Assembly: GCF_036588685.1 (NCBI RefSeq)
Contig: NC_086386.1
Span: 29,140,001 to 29,204,000, forward strand
Source: Mytilus trossulus
Taxonomy: Eukaryota
DNA length: 64,000 nucleotides
Direction of reading: 5' to 3'
Made by a program: the position numbers and the translations under genes. Positions 43,136-57,930 of the stretch are shown piece by piece. Under the pieces are notes generated by a model. The model saw nothing but the letters and a program-made list of their open reading frames with translations, searched no databases and had not been told where the DNA came from. The first letter of the stretch is position 1. Every line of letters begins with the position of its first letter.

Positions 43136-44530
43136 ATGAACTATCATCTGCATTTTTTAATGTCAATATACTTTGGACTTTTACACACGATAGTGGAAAG
43201 TGGAGGTAAATTTGTATTTCTCTTGGTAGTAACTGGGGACAGTTTATCTGTTCCTAGTATTTAAGTAAGCATATCAATAATTAGTCCTATGATATATGAC
43301 TTCGCATTATATATTCACTATTTAACGTTTTTTTATATGCTCGGGTAGCACATTGATAATATAAAAAAAATAAAAAATTAGCAAAATCAGTAAAAGGAAA
43401 TTGAAATAGAAAATAATGCCCCCGAGTTCATATATTATAGGACTAATTAATATTATACCAAAACAATTTATAATAATCATGGGATTTTAAGAGTGGATTT
43501 TTATTTCAAGAGTGCATGAACTTCAAGTGGGTGCAGACTAGGACGGATATGTACAATATAGTAGAATTTATCTGATACTGTTAGGTTTGCTTTTCATAAA
43601 GACTACGGTTTACACTGGTAATCCCTGCAAATTCGATTTTACGTTTCGCCATATTATGTATTAGCGTCTGTGTCTAAAGAGAACCCAGAAATGCATGAAA
43701 GAAGATAAGAATTCATCTTAAAAGAATCAAAATATAAAAATATCTGACTATCTGCGTAATAAGAACCTGAGAATTAAATAAATATGATTATTTGTTCTTA
43801 TCATAGGGGTTATTTAGGACTTGTTAGCGCTTGTAATGAAATACATTTTCGAAAAACATGTATGATGCATCAAATTAACTGCGTTTTTTTGTTGTTATAA
43901 TTATTGTGTTTTACAATTAGCGCTCGTATTCCCTGATACATGATGATACGTTCTCAGACGTTTGTTACTAGAAGCCATAAATAATATATGAATATTTAAA
44001 AACAACATTATATATTTAATACAAGTTATAATTCAGTAAATCAGTACCTTCATATTGTAGATACTAAAATGAATATGGTGTTGAGAGCCTTAATGTCTCC
44101 GACGCCACTACCAACTACAATGCCTCCGACGCCATCACCAACTACAATGCGTCCACTGCCTTCAATGCCAATGATACCCCAGCCACCAAGATGTGTTTAT
44201 AGAGGACAAACATATCGTTTTGGTGAGATGATTCAACAGGGACAATCAGGAAACTGGTGCCATTTCACAATGTGTGACCTTTCAGGGCAAATCATACATG
44301 GGGATGACTTCCACTGTTCTACAACTACATTACTCCCAACTACAAACTTACCACGAACCACAACACCACGTGGATGTTTCTTTGAAGGGAGACATTACCA
44401 ACTCGGGGAACAAATATCAAGCGGACAATCAGGAAACTGGTGCCATTTTTCAATGTGTGACTATTCAGGTCAAATCCATGGTGATGTCTTTAACTGTTTG
44501 GCAACCTTACGGCCGACAACACCAACATAA
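43136..44530 (+). CDS. Small secreted Thr/Pro-rich protein with two 4-Cys repeats (~179 aa; exons 43136-43205, 44061-44530)
   Basis: Exon 1 encodes a signal-peptide-like MNYHLHFLMSIYFGLLHTIVESG with a gag|gtaaat donor; phase-1 acceptor ttgtag| at 44061; repeat C.(Y/F).G..Y..GE.I..GQSGNWCHF.MCD.SGQI.HGD.F.C; AATAAA at 44562. Confidence 0.78.
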
Positions 44531-47182
44531 TACATTGTACATATAGGCTGATCAGTTCAATAATAAACTCAGTCGTTTTTACGTTTTCATAGTTGAATCA
44601 CTTGTTTACAGTCAGGATTCTATATGTACTTCGTCAAAATTATCTCACCAGTACGCCAGTTAATTTTTACAATCGTAGAAATTGAAGCCATTGTAGGGAT
44701 GATTCACTCCCAATTTAGCTCTTTATTTTATCCAAATAGCACCATTACGATCCTTATTTATATGTCAGTTGTATTTTAAAAAACCAACGTATCTTCTAGC
44801 TAATGAGTATAAGTTAATGTTCGTGACTGCATTGAGTCAGAGACATATAATACATTATACGTCTCTGATTGAGTCAACTTAAACTATTGTCTGATCGGTT
44901 GTCAGGTGGAATTTTCGAAAATTCATAAACATTTAAAAAAAAATCTAATTAAATATTTTGTGGAGGGGCTGACTAAGAACGTTCTTTGGTTGAAGACTTT
45001 AAGCCCTAATTATCACATACACAAAGTTATGTTTGTTCGAAGATATGCATTTTCATCCTTCAACTTGAAAGACTGTCGTAAAGTACTTTTAGTCATTGAA
45101 AAAATAGATTTTCGAACACCTACACTTTTTTGTGATTCATTAGAAAGGTATTTCACTTGACCCATTATTTCATCTTTTAGTACTGTGCTGTGAATTTCTT
45201 ATGTTATGAAGTCAACCTGTAGCCTCCGTCCGTGGGAGAGAGAGAAAAAAATAAAATCGGTGGTTATGCATTTTCTACATTCAACTTGATAGATACTCAT
45301 GTCGTCGGCTTGATATCTAATTGTTCTGCTTTGTAATATAGATAAATTGAAAACTTATGCAAATGGTGTTTTAAAAATAAAATTAAGAGATAACTGTATT
45401 AAATTATATTTGAAGCCATTTCAACCGTACCGGCTCAAGAAACTTAATCTCGTTGAGATGACCAACGGAACTTGGAACATATAATAATCGATTTATTCAA
45501 GTATGTCAGATTTCCCGAGTTACCTGTCATACTGCATTTTTATGGTAATTTTAGACAGTAGTTTCGGTGATCCTATAAAAAAGAAGTCTTATAAATAACC
45601 GTTTTAAAATGTTTCTAATTTTGATCTTATTTATTATGCTTTCAATTATACAACCCCTTGATTTATCAAATATTAACATTTTTGTTAAAAAAAAAAAGAG
45701 GCTTTCAATATATGCTATCTGATTAGCCGGCAAAGCTGTATCACGAATATATTGACTACTTTTCTGTATTAACTGGTCTCTTGTTGAGAGTAACGCTGGC
45801 GGATCTAGAATTTTTCGTAAGTGGGGGCCCACTTGCGGCATAAGAGGAGGCCGCGCCAGTCACGCTTCAGTGATTCCCTATATAAGCAACCATTTTTTCC
45901 CCAAAAAAAAGGTTGGGAGAGGGCGGGCCCCTGGGTCCTCTAAATCCGCCTCTGAGTAATACCTCATTGGCACCATGTCTTCTTATTGCGATATCCTAAT
46001 ATGGAAGTCCCTAGCAATTGCCACCATGGAGAAAGCTATCTGTGCATGTAATTGCCACGGTAAATAAATCTAAATTAACCAGCTCATGGGGCGTCTTTTC
46101 CGAAATACTCATCTGGACATGCAAATTACAATGCAAGAAATCTTGCAATGACCATGCAAGATGTGCCCGGAAACAAAGGCTTTTATTCTAAAAAATTATC
46201 AATATTACCAATGTTTGCAGAGTGGATGAAGCACAATAAAAAAAAAAACTAGATGAACCCGTGATTGATCGATGTTTTAATTTGAATATGAATACTGCAC
46301 CTTAATTTGATCTAATTCATAAAAGACCAACACACTGGACTTGACCTTAAGCTAGCCAATATAAAAGAAAATATCCACAGAAAAAAAAATCACTCTATTA
46401 GTATCTGGATATATTAGTATCCTGACTGCGGGTCGCTTACTCATCGCATTTACTCCTAATTGCATCTTGCTTAGCAGTGGCGGATCCACGGGGTGTTCCG
46501 GGGGTTGGAACCCTCCCTTTTTGGGGGCCGATCAATGCATTTAAATGGGGAATATTATAGTTGGAACTCCACCTTTTATCCTGGGTCACGAACTGGAGAC
46601 CAGCACATTAACACCTAGCAACATCCGAAAGAGTCTTCCTTGGATCAATGTCAAATAGGACAACCTATGAATAAAACATTTATGCCTAAGAAGCGCTCTA
46701 TTTGTTTGTTATTCCTCCAAGCTTTTAGTATTCGAAGAAAGGTCGAACATTCATCATTCGAGGTTTGATAGAAATACCAAACATTCAATATACTATACCA
46801 AATAAAATCACAGAATCAAAACATCCATACTATCTTGTAACTTGTAACTTGTATATCGTAACTTCCTCCAATAAAGGAGCACCTCAATCATGAGTATTCC
46901 ACCACCTTGTAAATGTACATGTTTATCTCTAAATGATTAAAATATAAAAGTCACACTGGTAGACATCTATCATCATTAAAAGGAATATTAAAAGTGGTTG
47001 TATATACATATGTATCGGCATAAAAACTTGAGGTAATTCAATGTCATGACATTTAAAATCTAAAATATATTTTCTCGATATTTACAGTTTATTTACACTG
47101 ATGTTGATCCGCGGAAATCGGTCTTCTGTATATTTGCTGGTTTTATTTAAGATAGTTAGCTTTTATCTGTATACCACAGTGT

Positions 47183-47540
47183 AGTGTGGCCACGTACCCA
47201 CGCTTACTGCTTCAAAGGATTTTATTGGGCTAAGTTGTAGTAAGTTTCAGTAAAGTGTGGCGAGATCCACGCTTACTCTGTTATAAACAATGACAAATAT
47301 TTAGCCTCTTCAATAAAGTGTGGCGAGATCCACGCTTTTGTTGTGTTGACGTATATGTGTTTGTATAAGAAGGCATTATGGATCAGTTAACAAGTGTGGC
47401 GAAATCCACGCTCATTTTGTAATAATGTTGAGGACGCTTCATAGTTGTGTCCCAAGAGTGTGGCGAAATCCACGCTCATTTTGCAATAATTTTGAGATTG
47501 CTTCGTAGTTTTATCCCTAGAGTGTGGCGTAACCCACGCT
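47183..47540. repeat. Array of six 20-22-nt hairpins AGTGTGG-N6-CCACGCT in the LINE 3' UTR
   Basis: Copies start at 47183, 47254, 47317, 47393, 47457, 47521, separated by 43-56-nt mostly unrelated spacers. Confidence 0.9.
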
Positions 47541-47562
47541 CAAGGTATCTATTAAGCTAACT

Positions 47563-50500
47563 TCATGTTCGATCGATATCATTGAGAATTCTTGACCTGC
47601 TTGTGTGTAGTAGAAAGCATAGTCTCCTTGATTGAAATTCTATGTCCATTAGGATTGATTTGTCACATCTGGGTTCCAGTAATCCAATTGTGCTTGAATC
47701 AACTATCACTTGGATAAGGCCTACTTCGCTACCGTTGTTTTTGAATTGAATACGGAGCTTTTCGTGTAGCATTTGGATATTACTCAAGATTGATTTTCTC
47801 TGGTTCGACAGCGCAGGACAAAGCAGTAGGAAATGTTCCAAGGTTTCATCTGATGTTTGGCACAAAGGACAAGTTCCCATTAATCCTTTGTTTTTTGAAT
47901 GCTTTGTTCTGTCAGCCATGAGTATATAACTTCCTGTTGCTATTCTTAATTTTACGGGTATTCTCATAGCTTCTTGCATGGAATTACTAGCAGATAGGTT
48001 TACTAATACATGTGTCTTCCCTGGTATATATTGAATATTTAAATACTTTAGTGAGGGGTATAGTTTACAATGACCCTCGATAAAATGTTTCCAATACTTT
48101 GATACTTCTTTATTTACCATGGTCTTCCATTTTAATTTTTGAATTTGACTGTCTAATACATGTAAAGCTGATGGTAAGTTGTATTTCGCTAGAATCGTTT
48201 TAACAGTGATAAACCAGCTGTGACTATCATCCGTTTTCATAAGTAGTTGTCTGTATGCAATTTGTTTTTCTAAACTATCATGTGGTTGTCTAGATATATT
48301 TCCAAATAATGACAAGATCTTTTTATGTATTTGACCCTCTATTGGTAGTTGTCCAGACAGAATGTATATGGCGGGCGTAGCTGTACTTGTTGGTAAAGAA
48401 AGTAACTGCTTTATACATTTTTTGTGGAATATGTCAATAATATCAAAGTTTTTTCCTGTAGGAGTTACTAATTCCAGGCCGTACAGAAGTACAGGGATGA
48501 CATAGATGTTAAATATATGTAGTAATGACTGTATGTCCAGTCCATTTTTCCCATGCAAACCAGCTGGCATAAGACTGTACATGGCTCTTCTAGCCTTTTT
48601 AACGTTTTCATACAACGGATTAGGATCATCTGGTTTTGATGTGCGCAAGACCCCCATATGGGTTGTTTGGCTAACTATTGGCATTATTGAGTTACCTATA
48701 CTCCATGGAAAGGAAGGTTCTTTCTGTTTTCTACGATTTGGATATACTGGTAGAATAACACTCTTCACTGGTTGAAGCTTATATCTCTCCCTTCGACTGT
48801 AGTTGTATGCCATGTTAATGAGTACCTGTAGTTCCTCGGGGTTGTCACTCATTAGTGCCACATCATCTGCACAAGTTGGAGCTGCGCAGCAAATAGATCC
48901 TATTTTTGCTCCTAATCCAGAATACTCGATATCTGTTAGGAGATTGTTGATGTACAGCTTGTACAGGTCAGCGCTCAGTATACCACCTTGTTTTACGCCT
49001 TGACATATTGAGAATGGTTCAGATATTAGACCATTAAATTTAACTACACTGCTAGAGTCCATGTGAAGACTATGTATAAGTTTCCATAGTAGTCCATCTA
49101 CACCTGCTATGTATAGCTTTCGTAGGATACTCTCGTGCGTTACCACATCAAATGCCGATTTAGCATCTAGAAGCGATATATATATTATTTTACCAGCATC
49201 CCTGCATTCTCTAATAAATTCTTCAATGAAGAAGGAGCAATTCATTGGAGCTGAGTTCTCAGTAAATCCTCTTTGTAGCCTATTTTGTTCTTTCAATATT
49301 TTAGGTTGGACCTTAGCCTTTGCTACAGACTCAATTAGTTTCAGCAGTATTGACATGATAGTAATCCCTCTGTAGTTGGAAGCATTCTTGTTACTTCCTT
49401 TGTTCTTGAATACAGGAGTGAGGAGACCCTTTTTAAGTATTTCAGGTATTAATCCTAATTTAAATGATGATACTATCATATTTGTTATTACTGTTTGCAG
49501 CTTTTCCCCACCATATTTGATATTTTCAGAGGATATGCTATAAATGTCTGGAGATTTGTTTATTTTCAATCCATTTATGGCGTCTTGAACATCTTTTTCT
49601 GTTACAGAGATGGTATTAGTTTGATTGTTACATATATCAATTATATTGTCTAGATCTAATGCTAACTGTTTGTAATATTCGTCGTCATATTCAGGATCAA
49701 TTGCTGGTTGCGCTAATTTGTTGAAATGATGTTTCCATCCAACTATAATTTCATTGTCAGATTTATAGATATTATCTTGTACATTCAGTTCGGATATACA
49801 ATTCTTCAGCTTTCCTTTTTTTTTACCAAGTAACTTGTAAAATATTTGATCATGTTTAGTTCTAGCATCTAAAATTTCTTGTCTATCATTGAGGACTTCC
49901 ATCGCTATCTCTATTCTACATGTTTTTCGAAGTTGATATTTCGCAGATTTCATATCACAGTATATTTTGTTGTTTGGTGATGTCGGTCTTTCATTTGCTT
50001 TCCATTTTGCAAAAGCTTCTTTACATCTTTTACTTGCTTGATTTGTTTGAAAGGATCTTATCTTAGGTTTTTGTTTCTTTCTCTTGTATACCTTGGGTTT
50101 AGGAGCTGATTCTATTGCTGCATTTTTCATAATGGTATTAACTTGTGTCATAACTTTAGTTAGCTCATCACCCGATTGAATCTCACTTGAAATGGCTGTT
50201 AGTGACTTGTTAATATTCTCCTCGTATAGATTCACGTCAATAGTACTCCATTTAATTTTTCTATTGGTAGGCAATATTTTTGTACTTTGTTGCCTATGTT
50301 TTATTTTGACGTTTAGTCTGCAGGTTATATGATAATGATCAGAGACTAAAGAACTACAGGAGTCAAGTTTAAGAAAACCGGAATGGTTCTCAAACAGCTC
50401 TTTGTCTAGTAATATGAAATCGATAGAAGATATTTCTTCATGCTTGTAGTTTATGAATGTTCGGCCCAGATCTTTTGTATATAAGCGATGGTCCTCCATT

Positions 50501-51120
50501 AGTGCTTTGACTGCCTCGTAGCGTTTTGATTCACTTTTGTCAATTATGTTTTCATTTATATCGCCACCTATAACAATATGATGTGTGTTATTGTATTGAG
50601 AGCAGAGCGAATGAAGTTGTTCTGTACAATCTAGAAATTCAATCAATTTTTCAACTCTATTATCCTTGCATGGCATATAAACGCAAATCACTAGAATGTC
50701 TTTACCACATGTATTTGTTATTTCAATACATTGGATTCTGTTATTAGTACAGTCTACCTTAGTGATTTTGTGATCGATAGTCTTTTTCCATAATATGCAA
50801 ACTCCACCGTATCCTCTTGGTAAGTGGGTAGGTGGTAGCGGATCATCGGAATCAACTGCTTTTCCAATACCATTAAAATCAACATGAATATTTTCTAAAA
50901 GTGGTAGCTGACAGTCGAATAGCCAGTGTTCTTGCAGCAACACAATACAATAGTTAAAAAGAATTTCAGAGAATAGTGGATCACAGGTTTTAATATTTTT
51001 ACAGTTAAAAGATAAAATGTTTAAATGGTAAACTTTAAAATCGCTATTTACATTTCTCGTTGCTGTAGGTACTAACTTCCGTTGTGTAAAAGTCTTTCCT
51101 GATGAAAAAAATTTTGATCC
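47563..51120 (-). CDS. LINE ORF2: AP endonuclease + reverse transcriptase + C-terminal CCHC finger (open frame from 51120; no in-frame AUG before the endonuclease)
   Basis: LNILSFNC..LLQEHW, GGDIN, IDFI, SDH (APE); YRGITI, LDAKSAFD, GVKQGGILS, CADD (RT); CPLC..ETLEHFLLLC; no internal stops. Confidence 0.95.
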   Translation of the reverse strand, partial: GSKFFSSGKTFTQRKLVPTATRNVNSDFKVYHLNILSFNCKNIKTCDPLFSEILFNYCIVLLQEHWLFDCQLPLLENIHVDFNGIGKAVDSDDPLPPTHLPRGYGGVCILWKKTIDHKITKVDCTNNRIQCIEITNTCGKDILVICVYMPCKDNRVEKLIEFLDCTEQLHSLCSQYNNTHHIVIGGDINENIIDKSESKRYEAVKALMEDHRLYTKDLGRTFINYKHEEISSIDFILLDKELFENHSGFLKLDSCSSLVSDHYHITCRLNVKIKHRQQSTKILPTNRKIKWSTIDVNLYEENINKSLTAISSEIQSGDELTKVMTQVNTIMKNAAIESAPKPKVYKRKKQKPKIRSFQTNQASKRCKEAFAKWKANERPTSPNNKIYCDMKSAKYQLRKTCRIEIAMEVLNDRQEILDARTKHDQIFYKLLGKKKGKLKNCISELNVQDNIYKSDNEIIVGWKHHFNKLAQPAIDPEYDDEYYKQLALDLDNIIDICNNQTNTISVTEKDVQDAINGLKINKSPDIYSISSENIKYGGEKLQTVITNMIVSSFKLGLIPEILKKGLLTPVFKNKGSNKNASNYRGITIMSILLKLIESVAKAKVQPKILKEQNRLQRGFTENSAPMNCSFFIEEFIRECRDAGKIIYISLLDAKSAFDVVTHESILRKLYIAGVDGLLWKLIHSLHMDSSSVVKFNGLISEPFSICQGVKQGGILSADLYKLYINNLLTDIEYSGLGAKIGSICCAAPTCADDVALMSDNPEELQVLINMAYNYSRRERYKLQPVKSVILPVYPNRRKQKEPSFPWSIGNSIMPIVSQTTHMGVLRTSKPDDPNPLYENVKKARRAMYSLMPAGLHGKNGLDIQSLLHIFNIYVIPVLLYGLELVTPTGKNFDIIDIFHKKCIKQLLSLPTSTATPAIYILSGQLPIEGQIHKKILSLFGNISRQPHDSLEKQIAYRQLLMKTDDSHSWFITVKTILAKYNLPSALHVLDSQIQKLKWKTMVNKEVSKYWKHFIEGHCKLYPSLKYLNIQYIPGKTHVLVNLSASNSMQEAMRIPVKLRIATGSYILMADRTKHSKNKGLMGTCPLCQTSDETLEHFLLLCPALSNQRKSILSNIQMLHEKLRIQFKNNGSEVGLIQVIVDSSTIGLLEPRCDKSILMDIEFQSRRLCFLLHTSRSRILNDIDRT

Positions 51121-52016
51121 CTATAATTGTTTAATCCTGGCCTGGGCACCTCGGTAGGTGTGTATAAAATTGGACAACCATGAACAAGTTTCGATCTATC
51201 TTGCAAATTTATCATACCCGGTGTAATCATATCTGAGTTATTCGTTAAAGAAGGTTGATGTTTTTGCATTGCTTTCCCTTCTTTATTGCTTGGTGTGTAA
51301 TAATTATATTGCAATGATTGATATACCCGATTTTGAGGAGGCTGTTGTACGACATTTATTGCTGGAGGTGGATGAGAGACATGATACTGCGGAGGCTGAT
51401 GTGCTCTATTTATTGTCGGTGGTGGATGAGAGACATGATACTGTGGAGGCTGATGTATGACATTCATTGCCAGAGGAGTAGCCTCAGAATTTCCAACAGT
51501 GCCTCTATGTACTGTGTTTGTGTTGGTATACACATGTTCCTTTGCAAGTGTTTCATTTGTGTTCCCTTTTGGCAGCATATCATTTATTACGGTTGACTGT
51601 ACAGGTATTTGTTCGCTTTCGATTTGGTTTATTTGAGCATCTACTTTCTGCAGTATGAGCTTTGTCATTCTTTCTCGCATAGCTAGTAGCAAATTATCTG
51701 TTTCAGTGACACATTTCTGGTGACAGCAGTTTTGTACTGGTGAGTTGGTATCTGTTCTTTTGGCTTCAGACTCGGTATCTTCTAGTACAACTATTTTTCT
51801 GTTAAGAATTCTTATTGTGTTGTCTAGTTCTTTTATTTTAGTTTCTTGCATGAGAATGGTAGATTGAAGGCGGATATTTTCAGCGTTAAGTTCTGAATTT
51901 CTCATTTCCCTCAATCGGATGTCGTCTTCTCGTTTCTTTAATTTTAACTCTAGTTGTCTTAAGTCTTTAAATTTAATTTGTTGGTCATCAGTAGGTTTGT
52001 TCTGATTTGTACACAC
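51072..52016 (-). CDS. LINE ORF1b: coiled coil + Gln/Pro/His-rich low-complexity repeats
   Basis: 314-aa ORF; heptad-rich LRQLELKLKKRE...; HQPPQYHVSHPPP repeats; -1 frame relative to ORF1a. Confidence 0.75.
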   Translation of the reverse strand: MCTNQNKPTDDQQIKFKDLRQLELKLKKREDDIRLREMRNSELNAENIRLQSTILMQETKIKELDNTIRILNRKIVVLEDTESEAKRTDTNSPVQNCCHQKCVTETDNLLLAMRERMTKLILQKVDAQINQIESEQIPVQSTVINDMLPKGNTNETLAKEHVYTNTNTVHRGTVGNSEATPLAMNVIHQPPQYHVSHPPPTINRAHQPPQYHVSHPPPAINVVQQPPQNRVYQSLQYNYYTPSNKEGKAMQKHQPSLTNNSDMITPGMINLQDRSKLVHGCPILYTPTEVPRPGLNNYRDQNFFHQERLLHNGS

Positions 52017-52069
52017 ATCTTCTGTTTTGTTATTAGGTATTATACTTTGTTCAGCGATTGTGCTGTTTT

Positions 52070-53329
52070 TTAGTTTGCTGCTTGTATTTGAGTTCTTTTT
52101 TGTTTTTTTGTTCTTGAAATATTGTCTACTTGTGCTTTTTCTACTGTCATATCATTGTCAATACAGATTAATGGAGTTTCAGTTTGACTACCATATGGTG
52201 TTTTGATGATTGTTTCATCATGCTCATTATCAAGTTCCTTTGATGTATCATAACTTGAGTCTTTCTTGACTTGCTGATCTTGTATTTCTAGGCCAAAGCA
52301 TGCTCGACATTTTTGTGTTGTGCAGTTTGTAGCTATGCATGTTAAGTGTACAATATTGTTACAGCTATCACAGACAGTTTCATCTGAATCTAATATATTA
52401 TTGTCACAATTAGAGCATATTTGCTCAATTCTTTCTTCATTCAGTAGTATCTCTGCACTGGTTGCCATTTGTGAATTTATTAAGGCTAAACATTTTTGTG
52501 TTGTTTTCATCATGCTAATGTTGTCAATTTCATGAGTATTAGTTTGGAGTGATGTACTTGAACAGGTGTTTTCAATAGCAGTGCTAGTTGGATTTGGACA
52601 GGATGAACATGTGTATGACGTGTTGTTATTACTTTCAATTTTGTCAATATCAATCCGCCTAAGACCTTCACACATATAGTGCACCCACATTTGGCAATTG
52701 TTGCACTGTACAGCCCTTGTGATAACATTTCTATTGCATTTTCTACATCTGGTTTTCATGTTGTTATCGGTTGATCTGTTATCTAATATGTATTGCAATT
52801 GATCTTCCAGCAATTTATTAATAGTACTAGTATTCATTTGTTGGTTATTTACATAGGTATTACATATCATGCCGTGGATTATTGGTAATTCATTTTCAAT
52901 AAAATGAGTTATGGATTTTCCATTAATCAATAAGGTAGCTTTTGTTGTATAGGCATTTATGGTATAGGATTGACCGCTTTTTAGTTGAACCTTAAATGTT
53001 TTTTGGACTAATACACCTCTTCTATCGTGTTCAGATTGAAATGTAACTTCACCTGTCGAAATCGGATAGCATTGATAATAGCTAGATAATGCAGCAATAA
53101 ATAACTCGAATGTTGCCAGATCTAATGTAACTGTGAGCCCTCCACTAGTCATTTTATATGAGATATCAGTCCTCTTTGCTGATTCTAGTTTGTTTTGTAG
53201 AACTTTATCTATATCAAGAGAGTATGTTTTGGTTTTAGTCTGATTTTGTACTTGATTGACATGGTTGTTATCCTGTATAGTTTTTGAATTAACAACTATT
53301 TTTTCACTGTTATTAGTGACTAAGGCCAT
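52070..53329 (-). CDS. LINE ORF1a with two PHD-like zinc fingers
   Basis: CRKC..QCNNCQMWVHYMC..YTCSSC and CSNC..VCDSCNNIVHLTC..CRAC (C4HC3). Confidence 0.85.
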   Translation of the reverse strand: MALVTNNSEKIVVNSKTIQDNNHVNQVQNQTKTKTYSLDIDKVLQNKLESAKRTDISYKMTSGGLTVTLDLATFELFIAALSSYYQCYPISTGEVTFQSEHDRRGVLVQKTFKVQLKSGQSYTINAYTTKATLLINGKSITHFIENELPIIHGMICNTYVNNQQMNTSTINKLLEDQLQYILDNRSTDNNMKTRCRKCNRNVITRAVQCNNCQMWVHYMCEGLRRIDIDKIESNNNTSYTCSSCPNPTSTAIENTCSSTSLQTNTHEIDNISMMKTTQKCLALINSQMATSAEILLNEERIEQICSNCDNNILDSDETVCDSCNNIVHLTCIATNCTTQKCRACFGLEIQDQQVKKDSSYDTSKELDNEHDETIIKTPYGSQTETPLICIDNDMTVEKAQVDNISRTKKQKRTQIQAAN

Positions 53330-53374
53330 TCTGATAAGTAACCTGTTTCAAAGTAGAATAATTTTATTCAGCTA

Positions 53375-53795
53375 AGTGTGGCGTAACCCACGCTTACTTT
53401 GTGTTGTTGGTTTATTTTTTTTTTTTTTTTTGGTTTTTTGCACCAGTTCTGTCGTTTTGCAGTTTAGTGTAGTGAAACCTACGCTCACTGCTCTAAAGTA
53501 CGAATAGGGAATATAATTCAAGGTTATTCACAGCTTTGCATATAGCTTACAGCAAAAGTATCTATTGACCAAACTCCTGTTGGTAGACTAAAAACTATGT
53601 ACACATATATATATATATATAGCAATAAAATCTTTCAAGTGTGGATACAGATGTTAATAACAGTTTTGAACATGTACCAATATAGTGTGGCGTAACCCAC
53701 GCTTACTATAAATAAAGAAGCAGCATAACTAAATGTTGTATTTATTGGTTGTATCTAAAATATATTATACAGTGTAGTGTGGCGTAACCCACGCT
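53375..53795. repeat. Second cluster of four of the same hairpins, between the SGNH ORF and ORF1a
   Basis: Copies at 53375, 53466 (compensatory G-C to A-T pair), 53684, 53776. Confidence 0.9.
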
Positions 53796-53828
53796 TACTG
53801 TATTGTACAATGCAGGTACACAGCTTGT

Positions 53829-54694
53829 TTAATTAGAAGTTTCCCAACAGTCCTTAATTATTTGTTGTTCAATTTTTCTTAACCAAACTTTTGACAGTAG
53901 CTGTCGTGGATGTACACCATCAAAGTACAGTTCAAACCTATGCTGCACCCGTCTTGTGACTCTGTGGCGATCACCTTTCCTGTGCTTTTGTATTAATGTA
54001 AGATCAGAGCTAAATTTTGGAGAGTAGGAGATATTGCTTGTGTTAACTTCTCTGATTTTTCTGTTAACACTGACTATTTGTTCTTCTAAATCTTTGTCGT
54101 GTTGATAGAAACTTTGAATCTGATTTTTACTTATTCCAGCAGCCCAATTCCAATTGACAATTGAATATAAAGGTATTTCCAGTATCGTTACTTTAGACCC
54201 TGGGTGTGCTTTGATGCATTGTGAAATTAAATTAGCTTCGGCTATTATATCGTCTACAACTGAATCGTCATGGGTTCTTAATGATATGTATCGCCCGTTT
54301 TTTATAGTAAAGTCACATGTACCAGCCCATACATACTTTAATCATTCAAACATTTTCTGTGCTTTATTTTGTAATTCATTCATTTGATTGTATAGCTCAA
54401 ATTTTGGGCACCATGATTGGTTAATGAAAATTATCTTATCTTATCTTATACCCATATATTTCCCTCTTCTTGTATTAGGTCGTCTATGGAGCTCTCCAGC
54501 CACTCTCTACACTCTCTAATTCTAGCACCTTTTCTACAGAACCAAGTAAAATCTCGCTCTGTAGTTGTTGATGCTTGGGATTCCAAGTTATACCCCTTAC
54601 TGTCAGTGATTATAATGGGAGTATATGTTTTAGTCCCAAGTGGGGCGAGCCTGCTCCTTTGCAGAAATTTTGTTAATTTTCTTTGAATTAACAT
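53829..54694 (-). CDS. Stand-alone SGNH/GDSL-type esterase ORF (~250 aa), interrupted by a ~113-bp insertion at 54336-54448
   Basis: ATG at 54694; IIITDSKG (block I Ser), RKGA (block II), VWAGTCD (block III), FDGVHP (block V); segment 54335-53829 is a 169-codon open frame that the ORF track misses. Confidence 0.82.
54336..54448 (+). mobile_element. Short retro-insertion (LINE/SINE 3' tip) with (CTTAT)n tail inside the SGNH ORF
   Basis: Ends TTATCTTATCTTATCTTA; removing it restores the in-frame NIWV|YVWAGTCD. Confidence 0.7.
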
Positions 54695-55215
54695 GTATGT
54701 TGAGATATAATATAGAATATATATGTTTCTGTTTATGGTATTGTAATCAAGGTATGAAGTAACTTTAACTTTCTTTTGAAGTTCGCGGACAGGAAGTGCA
54801 CGGACCCCGCGAAAGTCAAATTGAGTTGTGTGATATTCGTCTCAACTGCTTCTATTTCAGATAAAAAGTGTATATATATTGGCTTGTTTTGTAGTTTTTC
54901 ATAAATGTCACAAGATTGTTTGTTTTATATGTTCAATAACACACTATACAACACAAAAATCATAGAATATTCCCTGCACCGCAAAAATGTATCAACCACC
55001 ACCATTCATCACGTGAAACATTCAATATCATATATGCATATAACAATAAGTTTTTCTATCCTTGTTTTTGTTTCATATCTCGACTTTCTTGGTATTGCAA
55101 AATGGGTGCTGCTTTCAAAGGAGATACTGAACCAAAATTTTAACAAATTAAAGTTGCTTCTTTGAAATTATTATTATTATGTCGTCATGCTGCACGATTT
55201 TATTAACTGTTATAA

Positions 55216-56986
55216 CAACAAGAGGCTCTAAAGAGCCTGAGTGTGTCGCTCACCTTGGTATATATGTGAATTAAACAAAGGAAGCAGACAGTTCATGACA
55301 AAATTGTGTTTAGGTGATTGTGATGTGTTTGTACATCTTACTTTACTGAACATTCTTGCTGCTCACAATTATCTCTATCTATAATGAACTTGTCCATGTA
55401 GTTTCAGTGGAAAATGTTAGTAAAAATTTACAAATTTTATGAAAATTGTTAAAAATTGATTATAAAGGACAATAACTTCTTAGGGGTCAATTGACCATTT
55501 TGGTCATTTTGACTTATTTTTGAGTCTTAAATTGCTGTTTACAGTTTATCTCTATCTATAATAATATTCAAGATAATAACCCAAAACAGCAAAATTTCCT
55601 TAAAATTACCAATTTAGGGGCAGCAACCTAACAACGAGTTGCCCGATTCATCTGAAAATTTCAGGGCAGATAGATCTTGACCAGATCAACAATTTTACCT
55701 ATTGTCAGATTGCTCTAAATGCTTTGGTTTGTGAGTTATAAGCCAAAAACTGCATTTTACCCCTATGTTCTATTTTTAGCAGTAGCGGCCATCTTGGTTG
55801 GTTTGCCCGGTCACAAAACACAATTTTTAAACTAGATAGCCTAATAATGCTTCTGGCTATGTTTGGTAAAATTTGGCCCCGTAGTTTCAGAGGAGAAGAT
55901 TTTTGTAAAAGTTAACTAAGATTTACGAAAAATGGTTAAAAATTGACTTTAAAGGGCAATAACTCCTAAAGGGGTCAACTGACCATTTTGGTCCTGTTGA
56001 CTTATTTGTAAATCTTACTTTGCTGAACATTTTTGCTATTTACAGTTTATCTCTATCCATAATAATATTCAAGATCATTTCCAAAAACAGCAAAATTTCC
56101 TTAAAATTACCAATTCAGGGGCAGCAACCCAACAACGGGTTGTCCCATTCATCTTAAAATTACAGGGCAGATAGACTTGACCAGATAAACAATTTTACTC
56201 ATTGTCAGATTTGCTCTAAATGCTTTGGTTTTTGAGTAATAACCCAAAACTGCATTTAACCTCCATGTTCTATTTTTAGCCCTGGCGGCCATCTTGGTTG
56301 TTTGGCCGGGTCAAAAAACACAATTTTTAAACTAGATACATCAATGATGATTGTGGCCAAGTTTGGATTGATTTGGCTTGGTAGTTTCAAAGGAGGAGAT
56401 TTTTGAAAAAGATCATGGAGATTTACGAAAAAGGTTAAAAATTGACTATAAGGGCAATAACTCCTAAAGGGGTCAACTGACCATTTTGGTTATGTTGACT
56501 TATTTGTAAATCTTACTTTGCTGAACATTATTGCTGTTAACAGTTTATCTCCAACTATAATAGTATTCAAGATAATAACCAAAAACAGTAAAATTTCCTT
56601 AAAACTACCAATTTAGGGGCAGCAACCCAACAATGGGTTGTCTGATTCATCTTAAAATTTCAGGGCAAATCTTGACCTGATAAACAATTTTACCCCTTGT
56701 CAGATTTGTTCTAAATGCTTTGGTTTTGAGTTATAAGCCAAAAACTGCATTTTACCCCTAGGTTCTATTTTTAGCCATGGCGGCCATCTTGGTTGGTTGG
56801 CTGGGTAAAAAAACACAATTTTTAAACTAGATACATCAATGATGATTGTGGCCAAGTTTACTTTATTTGGCCCAGTAGTTTCAGAGGAGAGAATTTTTGT
56901 AAAAGTTAACGACGATGGACGACAGACGACGGACGCAAAGTGATGGGAAAAGCTCACTTGGCCTTTTAGGACAGATGAGCTTAAAA
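55216..56986. mobile_element. Helentron/HINE-like element with ~3 tandem units of ~495 bp
   Basis: GGTTAAAAATTGAC..AAGGGCAATAACTCCT recurs at ~55445, 55935, 56435; (GAC)n microsatellite and AGCTCA..TGAGCT terminal inverted repeat. Confidence 0.78.
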
Positions 56987-56989
56987 CTT

Positions 56990-57930
56990 GACATTGAGCA
57001 ATCAACCGTGTAAATGAGGTCAAGGTCAAATAAATCCTGTGAGACTGACATGTTCATCATACAATATTTCCATACATCAAATATAGAAGACCTATTGCTT
57101 ATTGTATTAGAAAAAAGACCAAAACTCAAAAACTTAACTTTGACCACTGAACCGAGAAAATAAGGTAAAGGTCAGATGGTACCTGCTTGTTGGACATGTA
57201 CACCTTACCATCATGCCATACACCCAATATACTAAACCTATTGCATACAGTATAAGAAAAGCAGATCAAAACACAAAAACTTAACTTTAACCAATGAACT
57301 ATGAAATGAGGTCAAGGTCAGATGACACTTGCCAGTTGGAAATGTACACCTCAAAATCCTTTCATACACCAAATATACAAGACCTATTGCTTATAGTATC
57401 TGAGATATGGACTTGACTCACATATTATCTTACAATCCTTCCATACACCAAATATACAAGACCTATTGTTTATAGTATCTGAGATATGGACTTGACTTGA
57501 CCAACACTTAACCTTGTTCACTAATCCATGAAATGAGGTTGGGGTCAAGTGGAAACTGTCTGATGGTGACGAAGACCTTGGAAGGTACGCACATACCAAA
57601 TACTGCTATCCTATTACTTATAATAAGAGAGAAATTAACATACAAAAATCTTAGCTTTTTTTTCAAGTAGTCACTGAACCATAAAAATGAGGTCAAGGAC
57701 AATGGTCATGTTACAGACAGAAACTGCTTAACATATGGCATTTATACACAAAGTTTGAAGCATCCAGGTCTTTCAGTCTGCTGGCTTTTAATATCCAAAA
57801 GTTGTGATTGAGTTATTTCTCTTTGTATAGAAATTGGTTTTTCTTGTCGAGCTTAGGACTTTTGTAGCAGAAAGCTCAACATAGGGATAGTTATCCAGCG
57901 GGCGCTGCATTAGCTATCTTCTTAAAAGCG
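56990..57930. repeat. Degenerate interspersed/tandem repeats (AATGAGGTCAAGGTCA family; inverted relative at 5235-5875)
   Basis: Recurring ATGAGGTCAAGGTCA and CATACACCAAATATA..AGACCTATTGCTTATAGT blocks. Confidence 0.6.

Follow-up and report, generated by a model that had tools for sequence, protein, structure and literature searches.

A free-standing SGNH esterase gene and its neighbouring hairpins as a probable portable cassette of transposons in Mytilus trossulus

Why transposons retain a catalytically intact esterase has been an open question since 2003. The usual idea, in which the enzyme is a Gag-like membrane scaffold of the retrotransposition particle, cannot explain an esterase in a DNA transposon or beside a full ORF1. 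A locus in Mytilus trossulus raises this question again. On the minus strand of a 64,000-nt stretch (GCF_036588685.1, NC_086386.1, positions 29,140,001-29,204,000; this whole stretch is hereafter the window, and coordinates are relative to it) lies a three-gene long interspersed nuclear element (LINE) of probable Proto2 type (46831..55025), whose first open reading frame (ORF), here ORF0, encodes a stand-alone SGNH hydrolase and is followed by hairpins. A preliminary description of the locus had offered two readings, namely a single element in which a separate, putatively lipid-binding esterase gene accompanies a repeated cis-signal, or an esterase-only satellite. Our main point lies beyond what the window alone shows: the gene and its hairpins are very probably a cassette common to several transposon classes.

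Along the minus strand, ORF0 and four hairpins are followed by ORF1 and ORF2, then by six hairpins, and finally by a terminal stem-loop and a tail of 7-nt repeats (46834..46853); order and strand of the genes and hairpin groups agree with the earlier description. The ends of the element are placed to within +/-4 nt by an empty-site joint and by five copies (L011-L015; loci are given by our own labels). This joint, 46830 to 55026, was seen in contigs of two public runs (X2 and X3), and since the flanks are joined across the whole 8195 nt, the locus represents one polymorphic insertion. Four nucleotides at the element ends fit on either side, a long target-site duplication (TSD) is absent at the empty site, and no TSD of useful length was found in five of six copies; a 13-nt TSD-like match near the window copy was rejected, as it does not fit the empty site. 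A search of the genome DNA with ORF0 gave 10 matches. All six copies with an ORF0 identity of at least 97% continue into ORF1 and ORF2, and the five besides the window copy align with it at 98-99%. The starts of four other copies fall at window 55002-55025, within 25 nt of the 5' end of the window element, whose 5' untranslated region (UTR; 54695..55025) may contain an internal promoter. Among more distant copies, L016 (92% ORF0 identity) extends into ORF2, and L017 and L019 (71%) both have ORF1 and ORF2. ORF2 with domains for an apurinic endonuclease (APE) and a reverse transcriptase (RT), the repeat tail and 5'-truncated copies are those of an APE-type retrotransposon lacking long terminal repeats (LTRs), and no splice joint appeared among the joints listed in contigs of four public runs covering parts of the element. 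With linked copies, shared 5' ends and an empty site, we are nearly certain that this is one real element, in line with the first of the two earlier readings.

ORF0 (53829..54694, minus strand; Ser32, Asp221, His224) is 250 aa long in intact copies. In the window copy it is not intact, a correction to the preliminary description, as a 113-nt high-copy repeat with a TA duplication (54334..54446) interrupts it. This insert is private to the window copy; it is absent from L011-L014, its joint is present in runs X1 and X19, and copies L011 and L012 have ORF0 open at 250 aa and ORF1 open at 752 aa. The 113-114-nt repeat has 354 candidates in the genome, with 40/40 scored matches 96-100% identical and scored copies 96-97% alike, and shows no evident terminal inverted repeat (TIR) beside its TA duplication. 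An intron was considered for the insert and rejected, because it is a high-copy repeat absent from other copies.

The SGNH fold that had been proposed for this ORF is borne out by a structure model (predicted local distance difference test score 89), for which GDSL/SGNH enzymes were the top Foldseek and VIA matches (Z 16.7, root-mean-square deviation 2.7, 175 residues aligned). Pfam and PDB sequence searches did not recognise ORF0, the rows that the fold searches listed did not include the ZfL2-1 esterase, and the nearest named protein is 97% identical. In the genome we collected 49 intact ORF0 copies (221-285 aa, 33 families at 80% identity), in which the catalytic Ser, Asp and His are invariant (49/49) and the block II Gly is present in 45/49. 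Among distant representatives these catalytic residues are conserved in 137/142, 129/135 and 128/134, and 122 of the 148 representatives listed are 220-290 aa long. The whole protein family comprises 781 clusters at 50% identity (E up to 1e-10), and Atlas suggests a spread over molluscs, with a few annelids. With a median isoelectric point of 9.5 the proteins are basic, and a beta-hairpin predicted ahead of the catalytic Asp/His loop has a median net charge of +5. The ratio of nonsynonymous to synonymous substitution, a check proposed earlier, was saturated for 6 of 12 pairs and 0.06-0.48 for the others, one pair having no synonymous change (dS 0). Many genomic copies carry a broken ORF0; one locus, L045, has a tandem duplication of part of ORF0, a seven-hairpin array and the start of ORF1. 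ORF0 is not the esterase-type ORF1 of other LINEs, as it stands by itself ~500 nt ahead of the 752-aa ORF1, and this layout holds in intact copies and in diverged families. Thus, ORF0 is a separate gene with an SGNH fold and an invariant Ser-Asp-His triad.

The hairpins are the second part of the cassette. On the minus strand, four 20-nt cores lie between ORF0 and ORF1: core 1, of type A (53776..53795), core 2 (53684..53703), core 3 with three changes that leave the stem intact (53466..53485), and core 4, 45 nt upstream of the ORF1 ATG (53375..53394). Six further type-A hairpins occupy the 3' UTR (47521-47540, 47457-47476, 47393-47412, 47317-47336, 47254-47273 and 47183-47204; span 47183..47540). 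Nine of the ten were found by pattern (at most 3 mismatches; 0 expected in 100 shuffles), the tenth being the variant at 47183-47204 with an 8-nt loop. Between the ORF0 stop and the first hairpin lie 33 nt, and between the ORF2 stop and the next 22 nt, in keeping with the earlier description (34 and 22 nt), and no match to the hairpin was found elsewhere in the window, as stated before. The 20-nt unit proved to be the core of a larger structure, whose stem has 11 pairs and a 1x2 internal loop. When the pattern was relaxed, the genome yielded 197 matches and a reversed control none; the 100 matches listed led to families with arrays of 12-15 hairpins after ORF0.

Over 18 type-A hairpins, 88.9% of cells are paired and 7/11 pairs change on both sides; shuffles reached the cell counts in 0/500 cases and the pair count in 4/500, scores that are inflated by the structure having been drawn from the same sequences. 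Where the window family has a C-A mismatch, other families have U-G or A-A. There are 12 G-U wobbles in the sense against 4 in the antisense orientation, the best model matches lie on the sense strand, and the covariance model matches families outside its training set (L044, L046, L049, L072, L121 and L123). Two other types, B and C, were scored by weight matrices and gave 61 and 56 matches, respectively, in 1.16 Mb and 0 in 250 kb of shuffled sequence; 18 of the type-B matches are weak scores on the type-A array of L144. Loci L070 and L139 have private arrays. Relatives of the element carry hairpins also in 5' UTRs and inside ORF1, so that a position after stop codons, as described earlier, fits this locus and is not the rule. 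Among the matches listed, such remote hairpins (5' UTR, ORF1, 3' UTR) are of the same type as the element's own. Plain RNAfold/descriptor screens, which are noisy, scored at least 10 at 35/95 loci after the stop, 0/95 inside ORF0 and 8/95 after shuffling, and Rfam returned 4 weak matches, all far below gathering and none on the hairpins.

It might be asked whether the repeats act as DNA rather than RNA. VANC proteins of plant VANDAL elements protect their own element from silencing, and the repeats could similarly be dyad sites for an ORF0 dimer. Two points weigh here against an RNA role: the core is near-palindromic, mostly with a 6-nt spacer, which a DNA-binding dimer could explain, and the wobble count is small. 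Family-specific arrays would also be expected of such sites, one family has a core that is the reverse complement of the core in another, and the explanation suits DNA transposons too. However, the asymmetric internal loop holds one orientation relative to transcription, also in cases of a seemingly flipped core. The outer stem covaries, loop length ranges from 4 to 8 nt and wobbles are in excess on the sense strand. We consequently give the DNA-site explanation little credence.

Which transposons carry this gene? The genome holds at least 151 ORF0 matches, of which 60 were fetched, chosen to span the scores and thus not at random. Free-standing relatives of ORF0 occur in five classes: Proto2, CR1-like and I-group LINEs, Gypsy LTR elements and AcademH-like DNA transposons. 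Many Proto2-type families have ORF0 ahead of ORF1 and ORF2. In single-ORF CR1-like elements it lies upstream, and independent loci align across the junction; the I-group host, which has RNase H, also has it upstream (L080, one locus). The hosts of L064, L065 and L077 conform to Gypsy elements, which have paired LTRs, gag and protease-RT-RNase H-integrase domains (Pfam on L065); in L065 and L077 the LTR pairs are identical, with ORF0 between the 5' LTR and gag. In four DNA transposons (L086, L088, L089 and L095), ORF0 is downstream of the transposase. These carry DUF6589 and DEAD/Helicase_C domains and arrays of 5-13 hairpins after ORF0, with no further ORF found; 50-nt perfect TIRs and a 10-bp TSD delimit L086 (one mismatch) and L095, the two with a resolved left end. 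AcademH elements have TIRs starting with TAG, a 9-10 bp TSD, a transposase and a superfamily 2 helicase, and we take the four hosts to fit this definition. In a set of 21 metagenome loci, ~12/21 had a stem-loop after ORF0.

Some hosts have features of their own. In the CR1-like loci L041 (1578-5192), L099, L083 and L029, the ORF opens with a signal-peptide-like hydrophobic stretch, followed by a 2A-like motif, and has a Cys-rich PHD-like region before APE-RT. In L085 (oriented 316-2154), ORF0 is the sole gene flanked by two 280-bp direct repeats (97%); its block III Asn is canonical, a modelled hairpin is absent, and the locus is possibly a non-autonomous LTR element carrying only the esterase.

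The second earlier reading, an esterase-only satellite lying beside the LINE and mobilised through the hairpins as shared RT signals, can be weighed against these hosts. The same hairpin does follow ORF0 and ORF2, and ORF0 occurs without an RT gene at L018, L072, L079 and L085. Against this, a single empty-site joint spans everything, the first array showed no repeat tail behind it, LTR and DNA transposons carry hairpins as well, and a different stem-loop is present at the 3' terminus. This terminal stem-loop (UGCUCC..GGAG; 46866..46881, minus strand), which differs in kind from the array hairpins, adjoins the tail in several Proto2 families, is also found in L155, a Proto2 family member without ORF0 upstream, and gave 23 sense against 4 antisense matches in a scan of 116 loci. 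It is likely the recognition signal of the RT. Given this distinct stem-loop, and arrays where no RT acts on the 3' end, the array hairpins do not appear to be an RT signal. The esterase-plus-hairpin units of a DNA transposon, which has no RT, argue in the same direction, and we consider the satellite reading most improbable.

In our tally, a stem-loop or array follows the ORF0 stop in 28/33 ORF0 families. On an esterase tree of 33 rows, built by a quick method, hairpin type requires 2 changes, which is the minimum (28 labelled rows), and host class requires 8 against a minimum of 4 (31 rows). A single clade of CR1-hosted esterases, a group named after the first tree was seen, was rejected by the approximately unbiased test (p-AU 4e-65). 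Thus, on the sequence evidence, hairpin type follows the esterase lineage and not the host. As a control, we took 20 RT-selected loci without a listed ORF0 match: one had ORF0 and its own 7-copy hairpin array, L144 is discussed below, and the other 18 had no hairpin or ORF0 match, although most may be truncated. For two full-length Proto2 families that lack ORF0, the 5' end is defined (L143, 6/8 other copies; L154, 2/2), and these carry neither gene nor hairpins. The L143 family (e.g. G000:C5:63559644-63569643) is very young and Proto2-type, with copies ~99.8% alike and many open 1185-aa ORF2.

Several observations weigh against the cassette or its proposed function. Five of the 33 families lack a modelled hairpin after the stop (L072, L076, L080, L083 and L085), and the count of 28/33 is partly circular, since the hairpin models were seeded from these loci. 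Locus L018 (71%) has ORF0 and hairpins with no ORF1 or ORF2 match in the stretch fetched. Conversely, 20 type-A hairpins occur in control L144, where ORF0 is absent within 9 kb; this locus is probably 5'-truncated, with a 3' end in common with an ORF0-bearing family. There is one weak cross-type score, of type B on the type-A site of L097. The block III Asn, located from the motif, is Cys in 47/49 intact ORF0 and 140/148 distant representatives, so that catalysis may differ. Finally, gene and hairpins are adjacent, and travelling together needs no binding. Weighing these points, we consider it very probable that the esterase gene and its hairpins constitute a portable cassette. Separately, L080 (I-group) and L083 (CR1-like) have related esterases and a similar single larger stem ~60-110 nt past the ORF0 stop, which models A-C do not match.

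What would such a cassette do? Our best reading, to which we give an even chance, is that of a three-gene LINE (likely Proto2) whose ORF0 and hairpins form a portable cassette, the protein binding the stem-loops of its own family and riding on the RNA of the carrier transposon. Binding itself, judged from sequence, is about equally likely to be true or false. In this model the stem-loops would act as RNA and mark the RNA of the carrier, and the basic beta-hairpin before the catalytic Asp/His would read them. According to the available text of PMC3905857, the ZfL2-1 esterase alone bound none of the RNA tested, and its protein has a coiled coil and an arginine-rich motif; a free esterase would hence need another tether, and the basic beta-hairpin may replace these parts of the fused LINE esterases. 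The tethered enzyme might then help the RNA, either by membrane targeting, which the same text proposes for the ZfL2-1 esterase, or by deacylating a factor that silences or degrades RNA, and the RT would likely prime at the separate terminal stem-loop. As a DNA transposon keeps both esterase and hairpins, the benefit would concern the fate of the mRNA and not reverse transcription. A broader version, in which five transposon classes trade a module made of an active acyl-hydrolase and the family-specific RNA stem-loop code that it reads, a Tat/TAR-like address that steers or shields transposon mRNA, falls just short of an even chance in our judgement.

Since adjacency alone could give the tree pattern, an element read by the host remains a real rival. 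The hairpins might be cis-elements by which host factors shield the RNA from nonsense-mediated decay, localise it, or allow the next gene to be translated through reinitiation or internal initiation. They would travel with the esterase gene solely as its 3' UTR, the esterase acting separately on membranes. Most hairpins are indeed placed after the ORF0 stop and before the next start, in some cases by 10-70 nt, and a first gene whose stop is 7 kb away from the 3' end requires a device of this sort. Host-read sequences should nevertheless stay steady, yet types A, B and C and the private ones (L070, L139) follow the esterase lineage; moreover, hairpins occur inside ORF1, in 5' UTRs and in the arrays of DNA transposons with no further ORF found. 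We regard this alternative as unlikely, while keeping it in mind.

The arrays also recall bacterial type III toxin-antitoxin systems, in which an endoribonuclease toxin is encoded downstream of an RNA repeat array that binds it. The free enzyme could be harmful, and the repeated hairpins could bind it or repress its translation. Such autoregulation would agree with an enzyme gene that adjoins 4-20 structured repeats in arrays whose core is conserved and whose spacers vary, and with a triad that is intact in all hosts. ORF0, in contrast, encodes an SGNH hydrolase rather than an RNase, the arrays are mostly downstream of the gene, and ORF0 is broken in many copies, which makes this explanation improbable. 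We thus retain binding of family-specific stem-loops by the ORF0 protein as the preferred reading.

The remaining genes place the element among LINEs. ORF1, with a PHD finger (51072..53329, minus strand; 752 aa in intact copies), is frameshifted in the window at an A run (52103-52109), which is A7 here and A8 in L011 and L012; a public contig has the extra base. The two genes ORF1a and ORF1b of the preliminary description are therefore a single ORF that is split in this copy, which leaves three genes instead of four, whereas its PHD domain in ORF1 and open APE-RT ORF2 stand. ORF2 (47563..51120, minus strand) is open over 1185 aa, with its first Met at residue 149 and a weak C-terminal zf-RVT match. 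It overlaps ORF1 by 49 nt (51072-51120), and inside the overlap U_UUU_UUU (51105..51111), as read in the frame of ORF1, is predicted to be a site of -1 ribosomal frameshifting. In 44 loci with an APE start, the adjoining ORF1 was scorable in 30 and overlapped in the -1 frame in 27/30. After near-duplicates and two broken junctions were removed, six U in the ORF1 frame were present at 19/24 loci, mostly as U_UUU_UUA, against 0.5% of equal windows inside ORF1. A Met upstream of the APE core is absent in most loci. With the -1 overlap and the U-run, this points to ORF2 being likely made as an ORF1-ORF2 fusion by programmed -1 frameshifting. As the site also occurs in families without ORF0, it would be a Proto2 trait.

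The label RTE-X-like, given earlier, is probably wrong, and the RT is most likely Proto2. Six families of bivalve LINEs sharing RT motifs or spacer with our loci are all classed as Proto2 in the available part of PMC10294476; by eye, L070 matches M.edulis_92 and the spacer of L044/L067 matches M.edulis_101. In an RT tree the RT of the window element groups with such loci and separately from CR1-like and Gypsy RTs, the group lying on one side of a branch in 74% of bootstrap trees; this tree contained no named reference, so that the assignment is indirect. Proto2 elements are sometimes labelled RTE-X by other classifiers.

Around the element and its copies, the 3' hairpin array recurs as duplicated 3' fragments, at ~3.9-kb spacing in G000:C5:25886479-25894347 and, at C14:14253881-14254258, 6.4 kb downstream of copy L012. 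The window has unrelated flanking repeats at 55300-56860 and 56983-57500 (periods ~500 nt and 146 nt). On the plus strand, a 176-aa open frame at 44000-44530 holds two Cys-rich repeats spaced 183 nt apart, and is probably a host-gene exon ~2.3 kb from the insertion.

If the broader version is true, the transposon esterase, long unexplained, gains a job at the RNA level that is separate from reverse transcription, and orthogonal protein-hairpin pairs become available as a natural set. The hairpins offer a concrete and testable partner, with small proteins, 40-nt RNAs and dozens of natural variants, and the young family has copies with all three frames open. Pfam does not call the large ORF0 family, and at least one curated consensus does not extend to it. 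For a LINE, the -1 frameshift predicted to lead into ORF2 would be unusual as well.

Pairs of a small basic protein and a stem-loop in its own RNA are known from Tat/TAR, Rev/RRE and phage N/boxB, and the element likewise encodes a basic protein and a conserved stem-loop in the same RNA. The OSK domain of Oskar is an SGNH fold able to bind RNA; Oskar (5a4a) matches the ORF0 model at Z 13.9, no better than ordinary GDSL enzymes. Unlike in these systems, ORF0 keeps its catalytic triad, and the pairing proposed here is inferred from sequence.

Among transposons, esterase-type (type IV) ORF1 proteins are described in CR1, L2 and RTEX LINEs such as ZfL2-1, and a reticulate spread of the esterase between LINE clades has been proposed, in the available parts of PMC3905857 and PMC4120745. 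They share with ORF0 the SGNH domain, the conserved catalytic residues and a place at the 5' end of a LINE. There, however, the esterase is the ORF1 protein and comes with a coiled coil and an arginine-rich motif. The gene studied here stands apart, upstream of a complete PHD ORF1, with a block III Cys, a basic beta-hairpin and RNA stem-loops alongside. The bivalve Proto2 LINEs resemble our element in their RT motifs; the main text of PMC10294476 has no mention of esterase, SGNH or PHD, and its consensus M.edulis_101 leaves out ORF0, starting a short way before the hairpin array, a comparison covering about the first 400 letters of each consensus, so that others may include ORF0. In the papers searched, we found neither a separate esterase gene ahead of a PHD ORF1 nor a hairpin partner. 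Free SGNH genes on unrelated classes, including DNA-based ones, have precedents: GDSL/SGNH accessory ORFs common to bdelloid LTR elements and Athena Penelope-like elements (PMC5408684), an SGNH ORF in Ngaro (PMC9210276) and Texim in fish Helitrons (PMC4021074). As far as the available text goes, esterase sharing among LINEs, Penelope-like, LTR, Ngaro and Helitron elements is thus already published (PMC3905857, PMC4120745, PMC5408684, PMC9210276, PMC4021074). These precedents are ORF3/ORF4 or intron-bearing captures, described as independent. In M. trossulus, by contrast, one protein family serves five classes in one genome, stands 5' of ORF1 or gag in retroelements, and is accompanied by a hairpin partner that the available parts of PMC5408684, PMC9210276 and PMC4021074 do not mention.

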